Shown piece after piece: positions 1 through 5,114 of a DNA stretch of 5,114 nucleotides. The DNA lies in the IMG/VR virus record IMGVR_UViG_2778261527_000009, positions 1 through 5,114 of that record; one strand, given 5' to 3'. How positions within the stretch are numbered: position 1 is the stretch's first letter; each line of letters begins with the position of its first letter. A program made the translations under genes and the position numbers. The notes beneath the pieces are model-generated. The model did no database searches, was not told the DNA's origin, and worked only from the letters and a program-made list of their open reading frames with translations. Source of the stretch: a virus. Its lineage: Duplodnaviria > Heunggongvirae > Uroviricota > Caudoviricetes.

Positions 1-450
1 TGCTGCATGCTCCTGCAGCTTCGAAATTGAGAGATACAGCTCGTCGTTAATTGCTGTCTTCTCATGCGGTTCCACCACACCGTCTTCGATTGCCGAACGA
101 ATCTGTCTGGAATAACTGCCAATCTGTTCAATGACTTCCAGCAGGCGCTGGTTAATATCGGCGTTGTCCACATCCTCGACGTCAGGAAGAGACACAAAGA
201 CGCCATTTGCAGACTGCGCCACAGCGTCAGCAATGAAGTGAGTTCCACCAGCACGTTGCAAAATCATTGCCCATCCCAGCGGGAAAATCTGATCGCCATC
301 GGCACGAAGGCGGTTAAATAATGCGTTTTCTGTTACATCCAGCCAGTCAGCTGCTTCAGCGTAACCACCCGGCAACGCTGCGATAGTTTTTCTGACAGCT
401 TTCACGTACCACTCAGGCTGTTTTTCTACTTTCCAGTGATGCTTACCCAC
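1..450 (-). CDS. CII-like / YdaT-like lysogeny regulator, partial (3' end runs off the window start); GTG start
   Basis: Minus-strand frame is open from GTG (plus 448-450) to position 1 with no stop (150 codons, hand-translated: VGKHHWKVEKQPEWYVKAVRKTIAALPGGYAEAADWLDVTENALFNRLRADGDQIFPLGW...ISKLQEHAA). Strong SD AGGAGG (plus 457-462, 6 nt spacer). Sits immediately downstream of the cro-like gene, the position held by cII/ydaT in lambdoid prophages. Not in the ORF track because it lacks an in-window stop. Family assignment is from memory of CII(CP76)/YdaT-like proteins, not a search. Confidence 0.5.
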   Translation of the reverse strand, partial: MGKHHWKVEKQPEWYVKAVRKTIAALPGGYAEAADWLDVTENALFNRLRADGDQIFPLGWAMILQRAGGTHFIADAVAQSANGVFVSLPDVEDVDNADINQRLLEVIEQIGSYSRQIRSAIEDGVVEPHEKTAINDELYLSISKLQEHAA

Positions 451-703
451 GGTTCACCTCCTGTTCCTGTGGTTTAAACCCATTCTGGTTTTGGCTAGAT
501 TGAAAACGTGCCGGATAAAGAATCTGCATTTCGCTGACTTCACCCTTAAAAAAATTGGCTAAACGTTCTGCAAGCTCGATAGATGGAATCTGCTCCAGCC
601 TCTCAATACGACTCAACGTCGCTGGATTGACTTGAACACCCGCAGCAACATGCTGCAAAGTGAAACCATGCGCCTTACGCACATTTCGTAATGGTGATTG
701 CAT
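443..703 (-). CDS. Cro-like HTH (XRE family) transcriptional regulator
   Basis: 86-aa ORF, divergent from the repressor gene. The N-terminal segment GFTLQHVAAGVQVNPATLSRIERLEQIPS has the look of an XRE/Cro-type helix-turn-helix. SD GGAGG is 4 nt upstream of the ATG on the minus strand (plus 706-711). Confidence 0.8.
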   Translation of the reverse strand: MQSPLRNVRKAHGFTLQHVAAGVQVNPATLSRIERLEQIPSIELAERLANFFKGEVSEMQILYPARFQSSQNQNGFKPQEQEVNRG

Positions 704-800
704 ACGCCCTCCAAATATTGCGCGTTATGCATGTTATTTCACGCAATTATTTTGCGCAAGTTGATTTGCTTATCACGCAATAAAGAAATGTAATAAACGC
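704..800. promoter_or_regulatory. Divergent cI/cro operator-promoter region (OR-like) with three operator-like 15-mers
   Basis: 97-bp intergenic region between divergent cro-like and cI-like starts. Three sites fit TTGC-N7-GCAA: 718-732 (reverse orientation, ATGCATAACGCGCAA), 733-747 (TGTTATTTCACGCAA, weaker left half) and 767-781 (TTGCTTATCACGCAA). A perfect 8-bp palindrome TTGCGCAA lies at 752-759. Putative cI promoter: -35 TTGCTT 767-772, -10 TGTAAT 789-794. Putative cro promoter on the minus strand around 731-759. Confidence 0.55.
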
Positions 801-1493
801 ATGAACATAGGAAACCGAGTCAGACAACTTCGCCAAGCGAAGAACATGAAAATCGCCGATCTCGCTGAAGCAATAGGAGTAGATGCGGCGAACATCTCGC
901 GCTTAGAAACGGGTAAGCAAAAACAATTTACCGAACAAACACTGAGTAATATTGCCAAGAGCTTAGGTGTTGATATTGCTGATCTCTTTACCTCTGCCCA
1001 CAAAAGTAATACTGTATATAAAAACAGTAATGATGAGGATGTTGCGCAGGTGAAGGATGTGTTCCGTATTGAAATGCTGGATATCAGTGCCAGTGCGGGA
1101 AATGGCCTTATCCAGGGCGGTGATGTCATTGATGTGATTCATGCCATCGAATACAGAACTGATAATGCTGTATCAATGTTCGGCGGACGACCAGCCAATC
1201 ACATCAAAGTTATCAACGTTCGTGGGGACAGTATGTGTCCAACCATTGAGCCAGGAGATCTCATCTTCGTTGATGTCAGCATCAATCAGTTTGATGGTGA
1301 TGGTATATATGTCTTTGGTTTTGATGACAAAATATACGTTAAAAGACTTCAAATGATTCCTGACAAACTGCTGGTGATTTCTGATAACCAGATTTACCGT
1401 GAATGGGGAATTACTAGCGAAAACGAACACCGATTCATGGTCTTTGGAAAGGTCTTAATCAGTCAGTCGCAAACCCTTAAGAGACATAATTAA
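801..1493 (+). CDS. CI-like phage repressor (N-terminal HTH_XRE, C-terminal S24 LexA-like autopeptidase domain)
   Basis: 230 aa. N-terminal HTH (KIADLAEAIGVDAANISRLETG). Ala99-Gly100 is a candidate cleavage site. Ser144 in GDSM and Lys181 in VKRL are 37 residues apart, the same Ser-Lys spacing as LexA. No SD precedes the ATG, consistent with a leaderless PRM-type transcript. Confidence 0.9.
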   Translation: MNIGNRVRQLRQAKNMKIADLAEAIGVDAANISRLETGKQKQFTEQTLSNIAKSLGVDIADLFTSAHKSNTVYKNSNDEDVAQVKDVFRIEMLDISASAGNGLIQGGDVIDVIHAIEYRTDNAVSMFGGRPANHIKVINVRGDSMCPTIEPGDLIFVDVSINQFDGDGIYVFGFDDKIYVKRLQMIPDKLLVISDNQIYREWGITSENEHRFMVFGKVLISQSQTLKRHN

Positions 1494-1511
1494 CCTCAAT
1501 ATCCTTCCATC

Positions 1512-1536
1512 GGCCACCGAAAGGTGGCTTTTTATT
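1512..1536 (+). terminator. Rho-independent terminator downstream of cI
   Basis: GGCCACC (1512-1518), GAAA tetraloop (1519-1522), GGTGGC (1523-1528), followed by TTTTTATT. Lies 19 nt after the cI stop. Confidence 0.8.
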
Positions 1537-1546
1537 ACCTATCAAT

Positions 1547-1597
1547 TTGCATATCCCGCAAATATCACTTGCATATCTCGCAATTTAATTTTATCTT
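1547..1597 (+). promoter_or_regulatory. OL/PL-like element: two operator-like 15-mers overlapping a putative rightward promoter
   Basis: Direct repeats TTGCATATCCCGCAA (1547-1561) and TTGCATATCTCGCAA (1569-1583), 22 bp centre to centre, matching the 15-mer family seen between cI and cro. Putative -35 TTGCAT (1569-1574), 17-bp spacer, -10 TATCTT (1592-1597). Confidence 0.45.
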
Positions 1598-1744
1598 TTG
1601 TTCCAGACCAACTACAGGATTACAACAAAATCTGGTTGCAACACGGTGCATGTGTCGTAAGCAGTCAGTAAATGTCAAAAACGAACAGGCAGGACGCCCA
1701 CGAAGTAGCCGCCTGGGGCATATGAAGTCCAGGATGATTCGTTA

Positions 1745-1772
1745 GCAACAAAAAAGCGCCCTACAGGACGCT
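1745..1772 (-). terminator. Rho-independent terminator for leftward transcripts
   Basis: On the minus strand: 7-bp stem AGCGTCC/GGGCGCT (one G-U pair), loop TGTA, then TTTTTGTTGC. On the plus strand the same hairpin has a C-A mismatch and no clean U-tract, so it is better formed on the minus strand. Confidence 0.5.
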
Positions 1773-1774
1773 TA

Positions 1775-1786
1775 GCTCTTTAACAA
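1775..1786 (+). promoter_or_regulatory. boxA-like antitermination element (rrn/nut type), immediately after a hairpin
   Basis: GCTCTTTAACAA (1775-1786) is an exact match to the E. coli rrn boxA core (NusB/NusE binding sequence). It lies in the leader between the PL-like promoter and the first downstream gene and is preceded by the hairpin at 1755-1772, the boxB-then-boxA order of rrn leaders. Confidence 0.4.
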
Positions 1787-1831
1787 TCTGGTCCCCATCA
1801 ACAAGTAACTGATAACTTGAGGAGGTGTGAA

Positions 1832-2038
1832 ATGCACAAAACAGAACCCAAAATCGTCGCGCCCGGATACACAAATGAGGAAATTTACGAGTGGATGGCA
1901 AAGAAGCTGGCAGCTATAAACCAGCTTCGTGAAGTGCTGTCTTATCGACAGGAAATAATAGACTCCTTAAAAAAACTGGATCAGGAAATCACGGTTTTAT
2001 CACAGGATGTTACTTTAGATATTGTGCAGACAAATTAG
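1832..2038 (+). CDS. Hypothetical small protein (68 aa), moron-like
   Basis: ATG at 1832 preceded by a strong SD GAGGAGG (1819-1825, 6-nt spacer). The track's TTG at 1817 is unlikely to be the real start. AT-rich relative to flanks. Product MHKTEPKIVAPGYTNEEIYEWMAKK...; no family recognised. Confidence 0.55.
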   Translation: MHKTEPKIVAPGYTNEEIYEWMAKKLAAINQLREVLSYRQEIIDSLKKLDQEITVLSQDVTLDIVQTN

Positions 2039-2444
2039 GATCCCATTCATTTTCGTCAAAATCATCAAAGTGATGAATTTGTGATCTCCAGTCTCGATAA
2101 TCTAAAAATTTCTGGGCGGTTACGCTTATTTTATCAAGTGTGAGTTCATCCTGAATTGAAAGAAGAAGTTCATCAAATTTCATCTCATTAATCTGTTTTG
2201 GCATCCAGTGATGCTTCATCAGAATAAGGTGAACCAGAGCCTTTTTCCCATTCAACTGATTATAGGGAGTGCCGAATTTCTTCCGGTGCTCATGTAAGAC
2301 AAGGTCCAGAAGAGTAAGTAATGTTGCCCTTGATTCGACTTTGCTTATTTCGACTGATGACACTACCCCACTGATTTCAATGCCCCGATACTTTCCAACA
2401 TTTTCACAGTGGGATTTGTACAGCGTGTAGATATTACCGGACAT
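2010..2444 (-). CDS. Hypothetical protein (144 aa), convergent with and overlapping the 68-aa gene; candidate moron/exclusion gene
   Basis: 144-aa ORF with a mixed, protein-like composition. Weak SD (AAGGAAA) about 6 nt upstream of the ATG on the minus strand. AT-rich. Overlaps the 3' end of the 68-aa gene by 29 nt. No family recognised from memory. Confidence 0.6.
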   Translation of the reverse strand: MSGNIYTLYKSHCENVGKYRGIEISGVVSSVEISKVESRATLLTLLDLVLHEHRKKFGTPYNQLNGKKALVHLILMKHHWMPKQINEMKFDELLLSIQDELTLDKISVTAQKFLDYRDWRSQIHHFDDFDENEWDPNLSAQYLK

Positions 2445-2459
2445 TTCTTTTCCTTTTGC

Positions 2460-2511
2460 GTTGTTGGGGATAACCAGATTAACCGAATCCTTGTTGTTGG
2501 GGAATAACCAG
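2460..2511. repeat. Two near-identical direct repeats (18/19 bp) upstream of the 144-aa gene
   Basis: GTTGTTGGGGATAACCAG (2460-2477) and GTTGTTGGGGAATAACCAG (2493-2511), identical apart from one inserted A, 33 bp apart. They lie 16-67 nt upstream of the minus-strand ATG at 2444. Confidence 0.6.
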
Positions 2512-2805
2512 GTCCACCTCGCCTGATGTGGCTAAAAGCAGGCACATAACAGCTAAGTATTTTCAACCAGAGAGAATCCTTAGCGTTGTGGTGAATGCGG
2601 CTCAGCGCACGCGGGTTAAGGTTGAGGCTGACAGTCGACCTTCTGTGGATACCCACCCGCCTGGTGTGCAACCTTCGCCAGGCACCGGGAGGCACCCGGC
2701 ACCACAACTTTATGCTGTGTGTAGTCCTGGCGGTACCAGTTTGTACCCTTGCTTCCGGCTGGCATCCCCGCACCACTGAAACGACTTCTTCCTGACTATA
2801 AACGG

Positions 2806-3066
2806 ATGGAAGAAAAAATAGACGCCGTAATCCGTGAGAAATACGGGTTACCTCCTGTTATGAGCACGCCAGTGAAATATGCCGATCTCATTATGCTGGC
2901 AACCGAACGCCGCGATCTCGGGCTTGATGATGGCTCTTTCTGGCCTGTGCTGGAAGGTATCCCGGCAACAGAGATGTTCAACGTGATTCCACTGGCTCCA
3001 GGCCATGCCTACGGGATGTTTATGGAACGCTTTAACGAATTATCGGAGTTACGCAAATGCGCATGA
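2806..3066 (+). CDS. HD-domain phosphohydrolase C-terminal remnant (YfdR/YfbR-like), N-terminally truncated; possibly a pseudogene
   Basis: The frame is open from 2725 (stop at 2722-2724) to the stop at 3064-3066. The product contains TPVKY and ADLIMLATERRDL, resembling the C-terminal half of YfbR/YfdR-type 5'-deoxynucleotidases, but no H...HD metal-binding motif is encoded upstream in any frame. First in-frame ATG is 2806 (weak SD); the track's TTG at 2749 is an alternative. Confidence 0.45.
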   Translation: MEEKIDAVIREKYGLPPVMSTPVKYADLIMLATERRDLGLDDGSFWPVLEGIPATEMFNVIPLAPGHAYGMFMERFNELSELRKCA

Positions 3067-3419
3067 ATGTTTTCGAAATGGAAGGGTTTCTTCGTGGGAG
3101 ATGTGTACCGCGAGATCTGAAAGTGAATGAAACGGATGCTGAATACCTAGTGCGTAAATTCGATGCGCTTGAAGCTAAATGTGCAGCACAGGAAAACAAA
3201 GTAATACCAGTGTCAACTGAACTGCCACCAGCAAATGAAAGTGTTTTGTTATTCGATGCTAACGGAGAAGGCTGGCTAATTGGCTGGCGTTCTCTCTGGT
3301 ACACCTGGGGACAAAAAGAAACCGGAGAATGGCAGTGGACATTTCAGGTCGGGGACCTTGAAAACGTCAATATCACTCACTGGGCAGTAATGCCAAAAGC
3401 ACCGGAGGCTGGAGCATAA
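3057..3419 (+). CDS. DUF551-like phage early protein (120 aa; resembles the CPS-53 YfdS class)
   Basis: 120-aa ORF, SD GGAG (3044-3047). Start overlaps the upstream stop (ATG 3057, upstream TGA 3064-3066). Trp-rich C-terminus (WLIGWRSLWYTWGQKETGEWQW) typical of DUF551 proteins in lambdoid early regions. Resemblance is from memory, not a search. Confidence 0.7.
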   Translation: MRMNVFEMEGFLRGRCVPRDLKVNETDAEYLVRKFDALEAKCAAQENKVIPVSTELPPANESVLLFDANGEGWLIGWRSLWYTWGQKETGEWQWTFQVGDLENVNITHWAVMPKAPEAGA

Positions 3420-3724
3420 TGACCACTTTTACCGACAAAGAACTGATTAAAGAAATTAAAGAGCGTATCAGCAGCCTTGACGTGCGAGACGATATTGAGC
3501 GCCGTGCTTATGAAATCGCACTCCTATCTCTGGAAGTAGAACCAGATGAACGCGAAGCTTATGAATTATTCATGGAAAAGCGTTTTGGTGACTTAGTAGA
3601 TCGTCGGAGAGCAAAAAACGGCGATAACGAATACATGGCATGGAATATGACTCTCGGTTGGATCGTCTGGCAGCAACGAGCTGGTATCCATTTCTCAACA
3701 ATCTCACAGCAAGAGGTGAAATAA
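3419..3724 (+). CDS. Hypothetical phage early protein (101 aa; resembles the CPS-53 YfdT class)
   Basis: 101-aa ORF with TAATG stop/start overlap with the upstream gene at 3417-3421. SD GGAG at 3411-3414. Confidence 0.65.
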   Translation: MTTFTDKELIKEIKERISSLDVRDDIERRAYEIALLSLEVEPDEREAYELFMEKRFGDLVDRRRAKNGDNEYMAWNMTLGWIVWQQRAGIHFSTISQQEVK

Positions 3725-4074
3725 TGGAGCCATACAGCCTCACACTCGATGAGGCCTGTCATTTTCTCAAGATATCCAGACCGACTGCCATTAACTGGAT
3801 ACGCACAGGGCGTCTTCAGGCAACACGCAAAGATCCCACTAAGAATAAATCTCCTTACCTCACAACACGACAAGCCTGCATTGCGGCTCTTCAGTCTCCG
3901 CTGCATACTGTCCAGGTGAGCGCGGGTGATGGCATAACAGAGGAAAGAAAATGTCACTCTTCCGCAGAGGTGAAATATGGTACGCCAGTTTCACATTGCC
4001 GAACGGTAAAAGATTTAAACAGTCTCTTGGAACAAAGGACAAAAGGCAGGCGACAGAACTCCATGACAAGCTAA
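3724..4074 (+). CDS. xis: Excisionase (Xis), HTH DNA-binding, P22-type
   Basis: 116 aa starting [31 protein letters not shown], an excisionase-type HTH. TAATG overlap with the upstream gene at 3722-3726. Lies directly upstream of int and overlaps it. Length matches P22 Xis as I recall it. The track's longer ORF from 3640 is an in-frame upstream extension. Confidence 0.8.
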
Positions 4075-5114
4075 AGGCTGAAGCATGGCGGGTCAGCAAA
4101 CTTGGTGAAATACCTGATATAACGTTCGAGGAAGCGTGTGTCAGGTGGCTTGAAGAGAAAGCACATAAAAAATCACTGGACGATGACAAAAGCCGGATCG
4201 GATTCTGGCTTCAACATTTCGCAGGAATGCAACTAAGAGACATTACTGAATCAAAAATTTATTCAGCAATGCAGAAAATGACGAACCGGCGTCATGAGGA
4301 AAACTGGAAACTCAGGGCAGAAGCATGCAGAAAAAAAGGGAAACCTGTTCCAGAATACACGCCAAAACCAGCGTCCGTTGCAACGAAGGCTACGCATCTT
4401 TCATTTATAAAGGCCCTACTAAGAGCCGCAGAGCGTGAATGGAAAATGCTGGATAAGGCACCAATTATTAAAGTGCCTCAACCAAAGAATAAACGGATCC
4501 GCTGGCTGGAGCCCCATGAAGCACAAAGGCTGATTGATGAATGTCCGGAGCCATTAAAGTCTGTTGTTGAATTTGCACTGGCAACAGGCTTAAGACGCTC
4601 GAACATCATCAACCTTGAATGGCAACAAATAGATATGCAGCGCCGGGTGGCATGGATAAACCCGGAAGAGAGTAAATCAAACCGCGCAATTGGCGTTGCG
4701 CTGAATGATACTGCATGTCGCGTATTGAAAAAACAAATCGGGAATCATCACCGTTGGGTATTTGTGTACAAGGAAAGCTGTACCAAACCAGACGGAACGA
4801 AAGCGCCAACAGTAAGGAAGATGCGGTATGACGCAAACACAGCCTGGAAAGCGGCGCTGAGACGGGCTGGTATTGATGATTTCAGATTTCACGACTTGAG
4901 ACACACCTGGGCAAGTTGGCTGGTTCAAGCCGGAGTCCCGTTGTCAGTGTTACAGGAAATGGGAGGCTGGGAGTCTATCGAAATGGTTCGTCGATATGCT
5001 CACCTTGCACCTAATCACCTTACCGAACACGCACGGCAAATAGACTCGATCCTGAACCCATCGGTCCCAAATTTGTCCCAGTTAAAAAATAAGGAAGGTA
5101 CAAATGATGTGTAA
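3951..5114 (+). CDS. int: Tyrosine site-specific integrase, P22 Int-like
   Basis: 387 aa with SD AGGA (3941-3944). C-terminal catalytic signature [11 protein letters not shown] ... VRRYAHL (box II His/Arg and the Tyr nucleophile). The N-terminus [46 protein letters not shown] closely matches phage P22 Int as remembered. Confidence 0.95.

Follow-up and report, generated by a model that had tools for sequence, protein, structure and literature searches.

The closest described systems are the sieB promoter of phage P22, with its antisense RNA sas, and the corresponding region of phage lambda. Ranade and Poteete reportedly found in 1993 that sas is made by superinfecting or lytic P22 and that it blocks the translation of SieB; the lambda sieB promoter is likewise said to have been identified through its homology to the P22 promoter. 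In the GenBank annotation of P22, the sieB promoter spans 29690–29720 and the sieB RNA starts at 29727, a position which is the A opening an exact repeat, ACCCCTACAG. A second exact copy of this 10-mer starts 34 bp upstream, and the −10 region, GATAAACT, sits between both copies and inside the annotated promoter. A 127-nt RNA named P22A-sas was reported in a 2026 small-RNA-seq study, whose authors equate it with the published sas antisense RNA of sieB (PMC13397905). As judged from the sequence given in that study, this RNA begins opposite the sieB start codon, spans the two motif copies and then covers a conserved module. Our literature search on the sieB promoter, sas or a small RNA at this site returned nothing further beyond the P22 small-RNA-seq table (PMC13397905).

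The window analyzed here, a stretch of 5,114 nucleotides (positions 1 to 5,114 of IMG/VR record IMGVR_UViG_2778261527_000009), covers the end of an SfII/SfIV-type lambdoid prophage that extends from the immunity region to the integrase gene, in the orientation opposite to the lambda map (Table 1). Sequence comparison indicates that approximately 2455–2546 of this window is homologous to the DNA just upstream of sieB in lambda and P22. A sensitive blastn search of phage genomes with 2440–2565 as the query found identical or near-identical copies in SfIV and in several E. coli phages, and diverged ones in Klebsiella and Salmonella phages. Lambda 34394–34464 aligned to window 2476–2546 with 76% identity over 71 nt; this lambda segment is intergenic and directly upstream of sieB, a gene located between N and ral and antisense to the early-left operon around it. 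When compared with the window, the P22 sas RNA had its top site on either strand at 2475–2546, with a local score of 51, whereas shuffled sas sequences did not exceed 23. In lambda, P22 and the Klebsiella and Salmonella phages, a G-rich motif occurs twice, 33–35 bp apart, and both copies are followed by the near-invariant CCACC..GCCTGA.GTGG..AAAAG(A)CAGGCA. The version of the motif is CTGTAGGGG in lambda and P22 and GTTGTTGGGG in the window.

Table 1. Coordinates of the repeats, the predicted promoter and RNA elements, and the surrounding prophage genes (positions in the window).
Feature	Position	Strand	Basis or remark
Cro-like gene	443–703	minus	
cI-like repressor	801–1493	plus	
Operator 15-mers and early-left promoter region	about 1547–1600		
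68-aa gene	1832–2038	plus	
144-aa gene, ECs1072 family of phage-associated proteins	2010–2444	minus	NCBIfam NF033230, 157.8 bits; PHROG 5286
ATG of the 144-aa ORF	2444–2442	minus	
Non-coding stretch	2445–2762		
Predicted 5′ untranslated leader of the 144-aa mRNA	2445–2470	minus	Sequence reading; AAGGA Shine–Dalgarno at 2455–2451
Proximal repeat copy, GTTGTTGGGGATAACCAG	2460–2477	plus	Read from the sequence
Predicted transcription start	near 2470	minus	By homology with P22
−10 region of the PsieB-like promoter, TAATCT / GTTAAT	2476–2483	minus	Aligned to P22 GATAAACT; between the copies
Distal hairpin, CCU-U-GUUGUU-GGGG-AAUAAC-C-AGG	2489–2512	plus	RNAalifold consensus of 30 double elements
Distal repeat copy, GTTGTTGGGGAATAACCAG	2493–2511	plus	Read from the sequence
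Conserved 31-nt module, CCACCTCGCCTGATGTGGCTAAAAGCAGGCA	2514–2544	plus	Matches the 3′ part of P22 sas RNA; lambda 34394–34464
Truncated yfdR, two small genes, xis, int	2763 onwards, int to 5114		

The initial annotation had pointed out two near-identical direct repeats upstream of the 144-aa gene, and their coordinates, the 33-bp distance from start to start and the one extra A of the second copy are all as it described them. In a local-repeat scan with one indel allowed, the pair scores 18, made up of 11 exact bases and 7 more past a 1-nt indel, versus a mean of 10.6 and a maximum of 16 for the best local repeat in 300 dinucleotide-preserving shuffles of the window; the chance expectation of the exact 18-mer is 0.01 occurrences. 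The view that such a pair exceeds chance is therefore justified. Its assignment to the promoter or 5′ leader of the 144-aa gene is borne out by the P22 sieB alignment, which places the −10 between the copies, and the end of the proximal copy is separated by 5 nt from the Shine–Dalgarno sequence. It was also correct that the repeats are unlike the cI operators. The operator 15-mer, TTGCATATC(C/T)CGCAA, i.e., TTGC(A/T)TATC(A/C/T)CGCAA, has three copies (766–780, 1547–1561 and 1569–1583), located at both ends of cI, which are likely the repressor operators (OR and OL), and it bears no resemblance to the repeat motif. A third copy of the motif, inverted and partial (AATCTGGTCCCCATCAACAAG), lies at 1785–1805 on the plus strand, just upstream of the 68-aa gene, and is complementary to 2490–2502 at 12 of 13 positions; it is present in close relatives only (L048 and L079), is absent from the 47%-identical homologue in L026, and may be there by chance.

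Elements of this kind were collected by scanning IMG/VR for the conserved module, which returned at least 120 stretches with at least about 90 distinct element sequences, from Enterobacterales prophages. The scan pattern fixed most module bases, so the conservation of these bases is partly imposed by the search. Two forms could be distinguished. The single form has one hairpin, immediately upstream of the module, and its opposite-strand start codon is 35–41 nt from the module; in the double form, to which the window belongs, the motif copies are 32–35 bp apart and the start codon is 66–75 nt from the module, a difference of one repeat unit. The first opposite-strand ORF beside the element fell, among the matches listed, into 33 BLASTP clusters, some short ORF calls among them being possibly spurious, and the clearly distinct families comprised SieB, ECs1072 and at least two dozen others, again among the matches listed. 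Within that same scope, the cassette is found upstream of up to about 30 unrelated opposite-strand gene families. The ECs1072 family itself occurs with both forms, e.g., with the single one in L026 and with the double one in the window.

A search of other prophages for the motif, proposed initially as a check on its relevance, was rewarding: 1113 of 5426 complete E. coli genomes (about a fifth) carry the window subtype, which was also found in Enterobacter, Citrobacter, Scandinavium, Trabulsiella, Atlantibacter, Edwardsiella, Serratia symbiotica and Shigella. No annotated feature lay under the match in any of the 30 E. coli records sampled. Many of the E. coli matches start exactly at 2460, which indicates a mosaic joint there. 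One viral contig (L109) carries two modules with differing cassettes, one single-hairpin and one double of the b-type, so more than one cassette-driven gene per early-left operon is possible. In four loci (L018, L024, L085 and L043), a DicF RNA (Rfam, 58–77 bits) lies 215–240 nt downstream of the module on the same strand, which puts the cassette in dicB-type early operons too.

The repeated motif exists in five subtypes, CTGTAGGGG, GTTGTTGGGG, TTGACTGTGGAA, GCATTGGGG and TTGTGGGGG, and the two copies are alike in each. Copies inside one element share 11.4 of 13 positions, while the same copy compared between elements shares 7.9–8.6 of 13; none of 10,000 permutations reached the observed within-element match (p < 1e-4). 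Element sequences are related, so the number of independent co-change events is nearer five. The comparison of these sequences strongly supports that the two copies co-evolve between phage lineages. The part that is consistently repeated across relatives is limited to the first 10–13 nt (GTTGTTGGGGA); the extra ATAACCAG identity is specific to the lineage of the window, and most b-type relatives have TATCCAG in the proximal copy.

On the minus strand, the alignment with P22 leads us to infer a weak sigma-70 promoter for the 144-aa mRNA, starting at about 2470. Both its −10 and its −35 are weak, and a simple consensus promoter scan of the window did not call it. The first ~11 nt of the proximal copy, as written on the plus strand, correspond on the minus strand to the predicted 5′ end of the mRNA, (U)CCCCAACAAC, and the rest of this copy falls between the −10 and the +1. 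The minus-strand leader is predicted to be unstructured (MFE −6.1 kcal/mol, z +0.4). A −10-like hexamer was found 5–8 nt upstream of the exact-repeat edge on the minus strand in all 30 aligned two-copy elements, and it is a perfect TATAAT in seven of them, including L009, L040, L043, L058 and L069. This constant position implies that the exact repeat starts at the expected mRNA start, as mapped in P22, and the geometry of the predicted promoter can be regarded as a strongly supported, conserved property of the cassette.

The single-hairpin relatives display the same geometry, with the −10 at another place. A TAnnnT directly after the module (minus strand) is present in 36 of 49 elements without a double repeat versus none of 41 double elements, and the window has no such −10 directly after its module. 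In these single-hairpin relatives, the minus strand of the module reads as a TTAACC-like −35 with a 16-nt spacing to the TAnnnT −10, and sequence reading places the predicted start inside the hairpin. The 5′ end of the mRNA in the single form would thus be complementary to the hairpin loop and 5′ arm simply through overlap.

In the plus-strand hairpin, the inner 5′ arm, the GGGG loop and the greater part of the 3′ arm all come from the distal copy. Across the 30-element alignment, 91.2% of the hairpin cells hold standard pairs, against 74% for column shuffles and 40–48% for slid partners, and compensatory changes were detected in six of the eight pairs; the covariation score of 0.544, against 0.242, was reached by none of 500 shuffles. 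The signal is also strand-specific: of the 239 cells in the hairpin columns, 218 pair on the plus strand versus 189 on the minus strand, with 37 G·U pairs versus 8 A·C, and the plus-strand fold is the more stable one in 62 of the 75 distinct elements among the matches listed. Compensatory substitutions together with the G·U/A·C asymmetry argue for selection on an RNA and not on a protein-binding DNA site. In the double form, the hairpin lies upstream of the minus-strand RNA start and is therefore usable by a plus-strand RNA only. These alignments strongly support a plus-strand RNA hairpin that includes the distal copy. This support is limited to the distal hairpin, since the whole plus-strand element of the window folds no better than shuffled sequences (z +0.6).

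Other structural candidates were discarded. The proximal copy does not form a second conserved hairpin: by eye, its 3′ flank varies freely and without compensation, as expected for DNA between a −10 and a +1. An H-type pseudoknot within the module is not claimed, because only one of its stems shows compensation, the CCAC/GUGG pair being replaced by CCGC/GCGG in 4/4 variants found, while variants of the GCCUG/CAGGC stem are uncompensated. CsrA-type GGA loop motifs were rejected as a general explanation, being present in subtypes b and c and absent in a and e (by eye).

Taking these observations together, our preferred reading, which we put at a rough probability of 0.6, is that the repeats are the paired motif copies of a ~90-bp PsieB/sas-type cassette that acts on both strands and is joined to a gene of the ECs1072 family, which an antisense RNA would repress. 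That the repeats belong to a conserved sieB-promoter/sas-type cassette is, as far as sequence evidence goes, strongly supported. In a lysogen, the minus-strand promoter would express the 144-aa gene from an mRNA whose first bases are complementary to the proximal copy. In the lytic cycle, plus-strand transcription in the early-left direction, from pL or from an internal sas-type promoter, would yield a structured RNA, antisense over the start and leader of the gene and continuing through the hairpin into the module. Such a product is postulated for the window on the strength of P22, and we identified no equivalent of the sas plus-strand promoter in the window. The antisense RNA would pair with the 5′ end and leader of the mRNA, lowering its translation or stability, and the exposed distal loop and 5′ arm would stay complementary to the first ~8–11 nt of the mRNA and could nucleate this pairing. 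Located upstream of the mRNA start, the distal copy can have no overlap with the mRNA, and its identity with the proximal copy would thus be kept by selection. The repeat, in other words, would keep the 5′ end of the mRNA complementary to the antisense-strand hairpin.

The consistent complementarity between copies amounts to a seed of only about 6–9 nt, and no wobble-compatible bias was seen in the differences between copies when their sequences were read. It is not self-evident why an RNA that overlaps the leader, and already pairs fully with it, would need a second pairing site. The double form resembles a single form that has undergone a 34-bp duplication and in which selection now maintains the match. 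More tentatively, and with the balance somewhat against it, we hypothesize that the cassette is a portable on/off unit of prophage accessory genes throughout the Enterobacterales, by which up to about 30 unrelated gene families would be expressed in lysogens and silenced when the early-left operon fires, the hairpin of the double form, displaced from the mRNA overlap by the 34-bp duplication, recognizing the mRNA only via a co-evolving 8–11-nt seed. If so, a cis-encoded antisense RNA would act by a trans-type seed pairing.

Alternatively, a regulatory protein could bind the DNA of both copies, one of which lies over the −35 region and the other over the +1 of the 144-aa promoter; tandem regulator sites were indeed what the initial annotation proposed. 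The like orientation of the copies, their distance of about 3.2 helical turns and their position bracketing the −10 are consistent with this explanation, as is the poor −35, which resembles that of activator-dependent promoters; concerted change of the copies may also result from co-evolution with a binding protein. However, a DNA site needs neither the compensatory changes of the hairpin nor the strand-specific G·U excess, and the identity between the copies begins at the RNA start whichever the subtype. We found no protein family within −5/+4 kb that all members of one subtype share and that the other elements lack (the best cases were 7/14, 20/33 and 3/7), and one and the same downstream gene family is found with subtypes a, b and e; a host factor common to the host species would be expected to recognize one motif and not five. 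Since no protein within this range tracks the motif and the same gene family goes with different motifs, the 144-aa product is unlikely to be the specific binder. With the distal copy inside a covarying, strand-asymmetric hairpin and the repeat edge at the RNA start, tandem regulator sites fared poorly, and we regard them as an improbable explanation. The idea of iteron-like elements, raised in the initial annotation as well, fared worse. Replication-origin iterons, or the RNA antitoxin repeats of a type III toxin–antitoxin system (ToxIN), are suggested by short direct repeats directly upstream of a small gene of unknown function, but the copies are only two, the unit is repeated in part (18 of 33 nt), and the site is between cI and int, within the early-left operon, with the replication genes on the far side of cro. 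Two copies and a location away from the replication genes argue against iterons; the partial unit, a 144-aa protein that matches neither Pfam nor PADLOC and a cassette preceding, among the matches listed, up to about 30 unrelated gene families speak against a ToxIN-like system. Either identity is, in our view, extremely unlikely.

The repeat could also be the scar of a tandem duplication of ~34 bp in a single-hairpin cassette, its copies being similar through slippage or gene conversion and having no function of their own. The distances from start codon to module in the two forms, which differ by one repeat unit, would follow from such an event, as would the occurrence of both forms with the same gene family in L026 and in the window. 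Only 10–13 nt of each 33–35-nt unit are identical, however; the remainder has diverged, and a −10 has arisen in the spacer. Both copies are kept matched in each of the five motif subtypes, and genera as far apart as Escherichia, Edwardsiella and Serratia have kept this arrangement. Furthermore, gene conversion between 10-nt repeats 34 bp apart is not known as an established process. A functionless scar is in our estimation about as improbable as the protein-binding sites. The evidence as a whole points to repeats that are regulatory and unrelated to cI, and it favors an RNA/promoter cassette over protein-binding sites or iterons.

The gene that the cassette would control in the window encodes a protein unrelated to P22 SieB (BLASTP E 9.4). 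Its AlphaFold model is all-alpha (pLDDT 82.6) and had no PDB match below E 2. The position of the gene is that of sieB in lambda and P22, and a role in exclusion or defense is a reasonable guess from this position, though no more than that. ECs1072 was detected by microarray in an uninduced O157 culture (PMC2241611). The 68-aa and 144-aa genes overlap tail to tail (2010–2038), and the same convergent pair recurs in L026, with about 47% identity and beside a single-hairpin cassette, suggesting a two-gene unit. Downstream of the 144-aa gene, a GC-rich hairpin at 1754–1773, flanked by T runs, can be read as a minus-strand terminator, before which the 144-aa transcript would cross the 68-aa gene in antisense; it could also be a plus-strand terminator just past the pL leader.

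Several further observations concern the prophage itself. The early-left leader contains a hairpin, CCUGG-GGCAUAUGAAGU-CCAGG, at 1713–1736 on the plus strand, whose arms covary (CCGG/CCGG in L119, CCCCA/UGGGG in L026). In L119, this leader runs into the module without intervening genes, and approximately 1745–2513 of the window therefore looks like an insertion into the backbone, comprising the terminator, the 68-aa gene, the 144-aa gene and the repeats. A deletion joint is located at 2762/2763, where 460 bp of E. coli NZ_AP027865 (L001 4264–4723) and 1763 bp of SfIV are missing, with the result that yfdR is truncated in its 5′ part. Shigella flexneri SFBU0723 (L152, CP182557.1) is identical to the window across the cassette, and this identity, together with the tRNA-Thr/proA integration site in L001, fits a prophage akin to the serotype-converting phages of Shigella and E. 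coli.

An Rfam search of the whole window (E ≤ 1) returned nothing over the repeats or the module (2445–2552), and AgvB and other prophage sRNA families were unmatched. Downstream, at 2563–2748 on the plus strand, a structured GC-rich region resembles STnc100, with 35.6 bits (E 3.5e-5) against a gathering score of 47, and it is thus not assigned to that family. The ORFs annotated across this region are SfIV_34 and, in NZ_AP027865, a frameshifted pseudogene. PHROG support for SfIV_34 is limited to residues 101–225, so that its first ~100 codons are probably STnc100-like RNA and not protein. HK022 put RNA showed no similarity to the pL leader or to the STnc100-like region. A 2026 preprint relates STnc100 to the PasD sRNAs. 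The weak match in the window lies 50 nt downstream, on the same strand, and is a separate element that includes neither the repeats nor the module.

These results offer an explanation for an unannotated element of about one in five complete E. coli genomes. They also connect a little-cited P22 finding of 1993, on sas and the sieB promoter, with a far broader range of accessory genes in prophages. In annotation, the cassette may serve to predict promoters and RNA starts for many unannotated opposite-strand genes of early-left operons. A co-evolving duplicated seed would be an additional feature and is directly testable. Should seed pairing be true, duplication would have separated an antisense regulator from its target, and selection would since have maintained their match; should it be false, the repeats would be a conserved landmark of a promoter/antisense cassette within ordinary phage regulation.

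When compared with the known systems, the element of the window is a further member of the P22 sas/sieB promoter cassette. The relationship is seen in homologous sequence, with intermediate sequences that could be aligned, and in location, the cassette being found downstream of pL and immediately before a gene that runs antisense to the early-left operon; the order is cI (801–1493), operators (1547–1583), the minus-strand gene (2010–2444) and the cassette (2445–2544). As in P22, where the copies are 34 bp apart, a −10 lies between two copies, 33 bp apart in the window, and the RNA start falls at the proximal copy, the hexamer of the window being 7 nt from the repeat edge and its predicted RNA start being set by analogy with P22 29727. 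On the other strand, both have a GGGG-loop hairpin followed by the CCACC..GCCTGA.GTGG..AAAAG module, which in the window would give a structured RNA. The window differs from P22 in its motif subtype and in the controlled gene, which belongs to the ECs1072 family. It shows no sign of a SieB/Esc-type switch between two in-frame starts, such as the internal esc start of sieB. The 144-aa protein has no similarity to SieB and belongs to NF033230, so the window holds a relative of the cassette and not a sieB/esc system. Transcription was mapped in P22, whereas the promoter, RNA start and antisense RNA of the window are carried over from it.

Lambda 34358–34481 has the same two-copy architecture and the same module, with another motif subtype and another downstream gene. 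Its cassette comes after N and sieB, whereas that of the window comes after the 68-aa gene, and no N homologue was found between pL and the cassette in the window. Beyond lambdoid phages, hok/Sok, CopA/CopT and RNA I/RNA II are cases of loop-initiated cis-antisense control. The mechanism proposed here is similar to them in that the loop of the putative antisense RNA is complementary to a single-stranded part of the mRNA leader; it differs in that the candidate nucleating loop lies outside the overlap with the mRNA and would match it via a duplicated motif.
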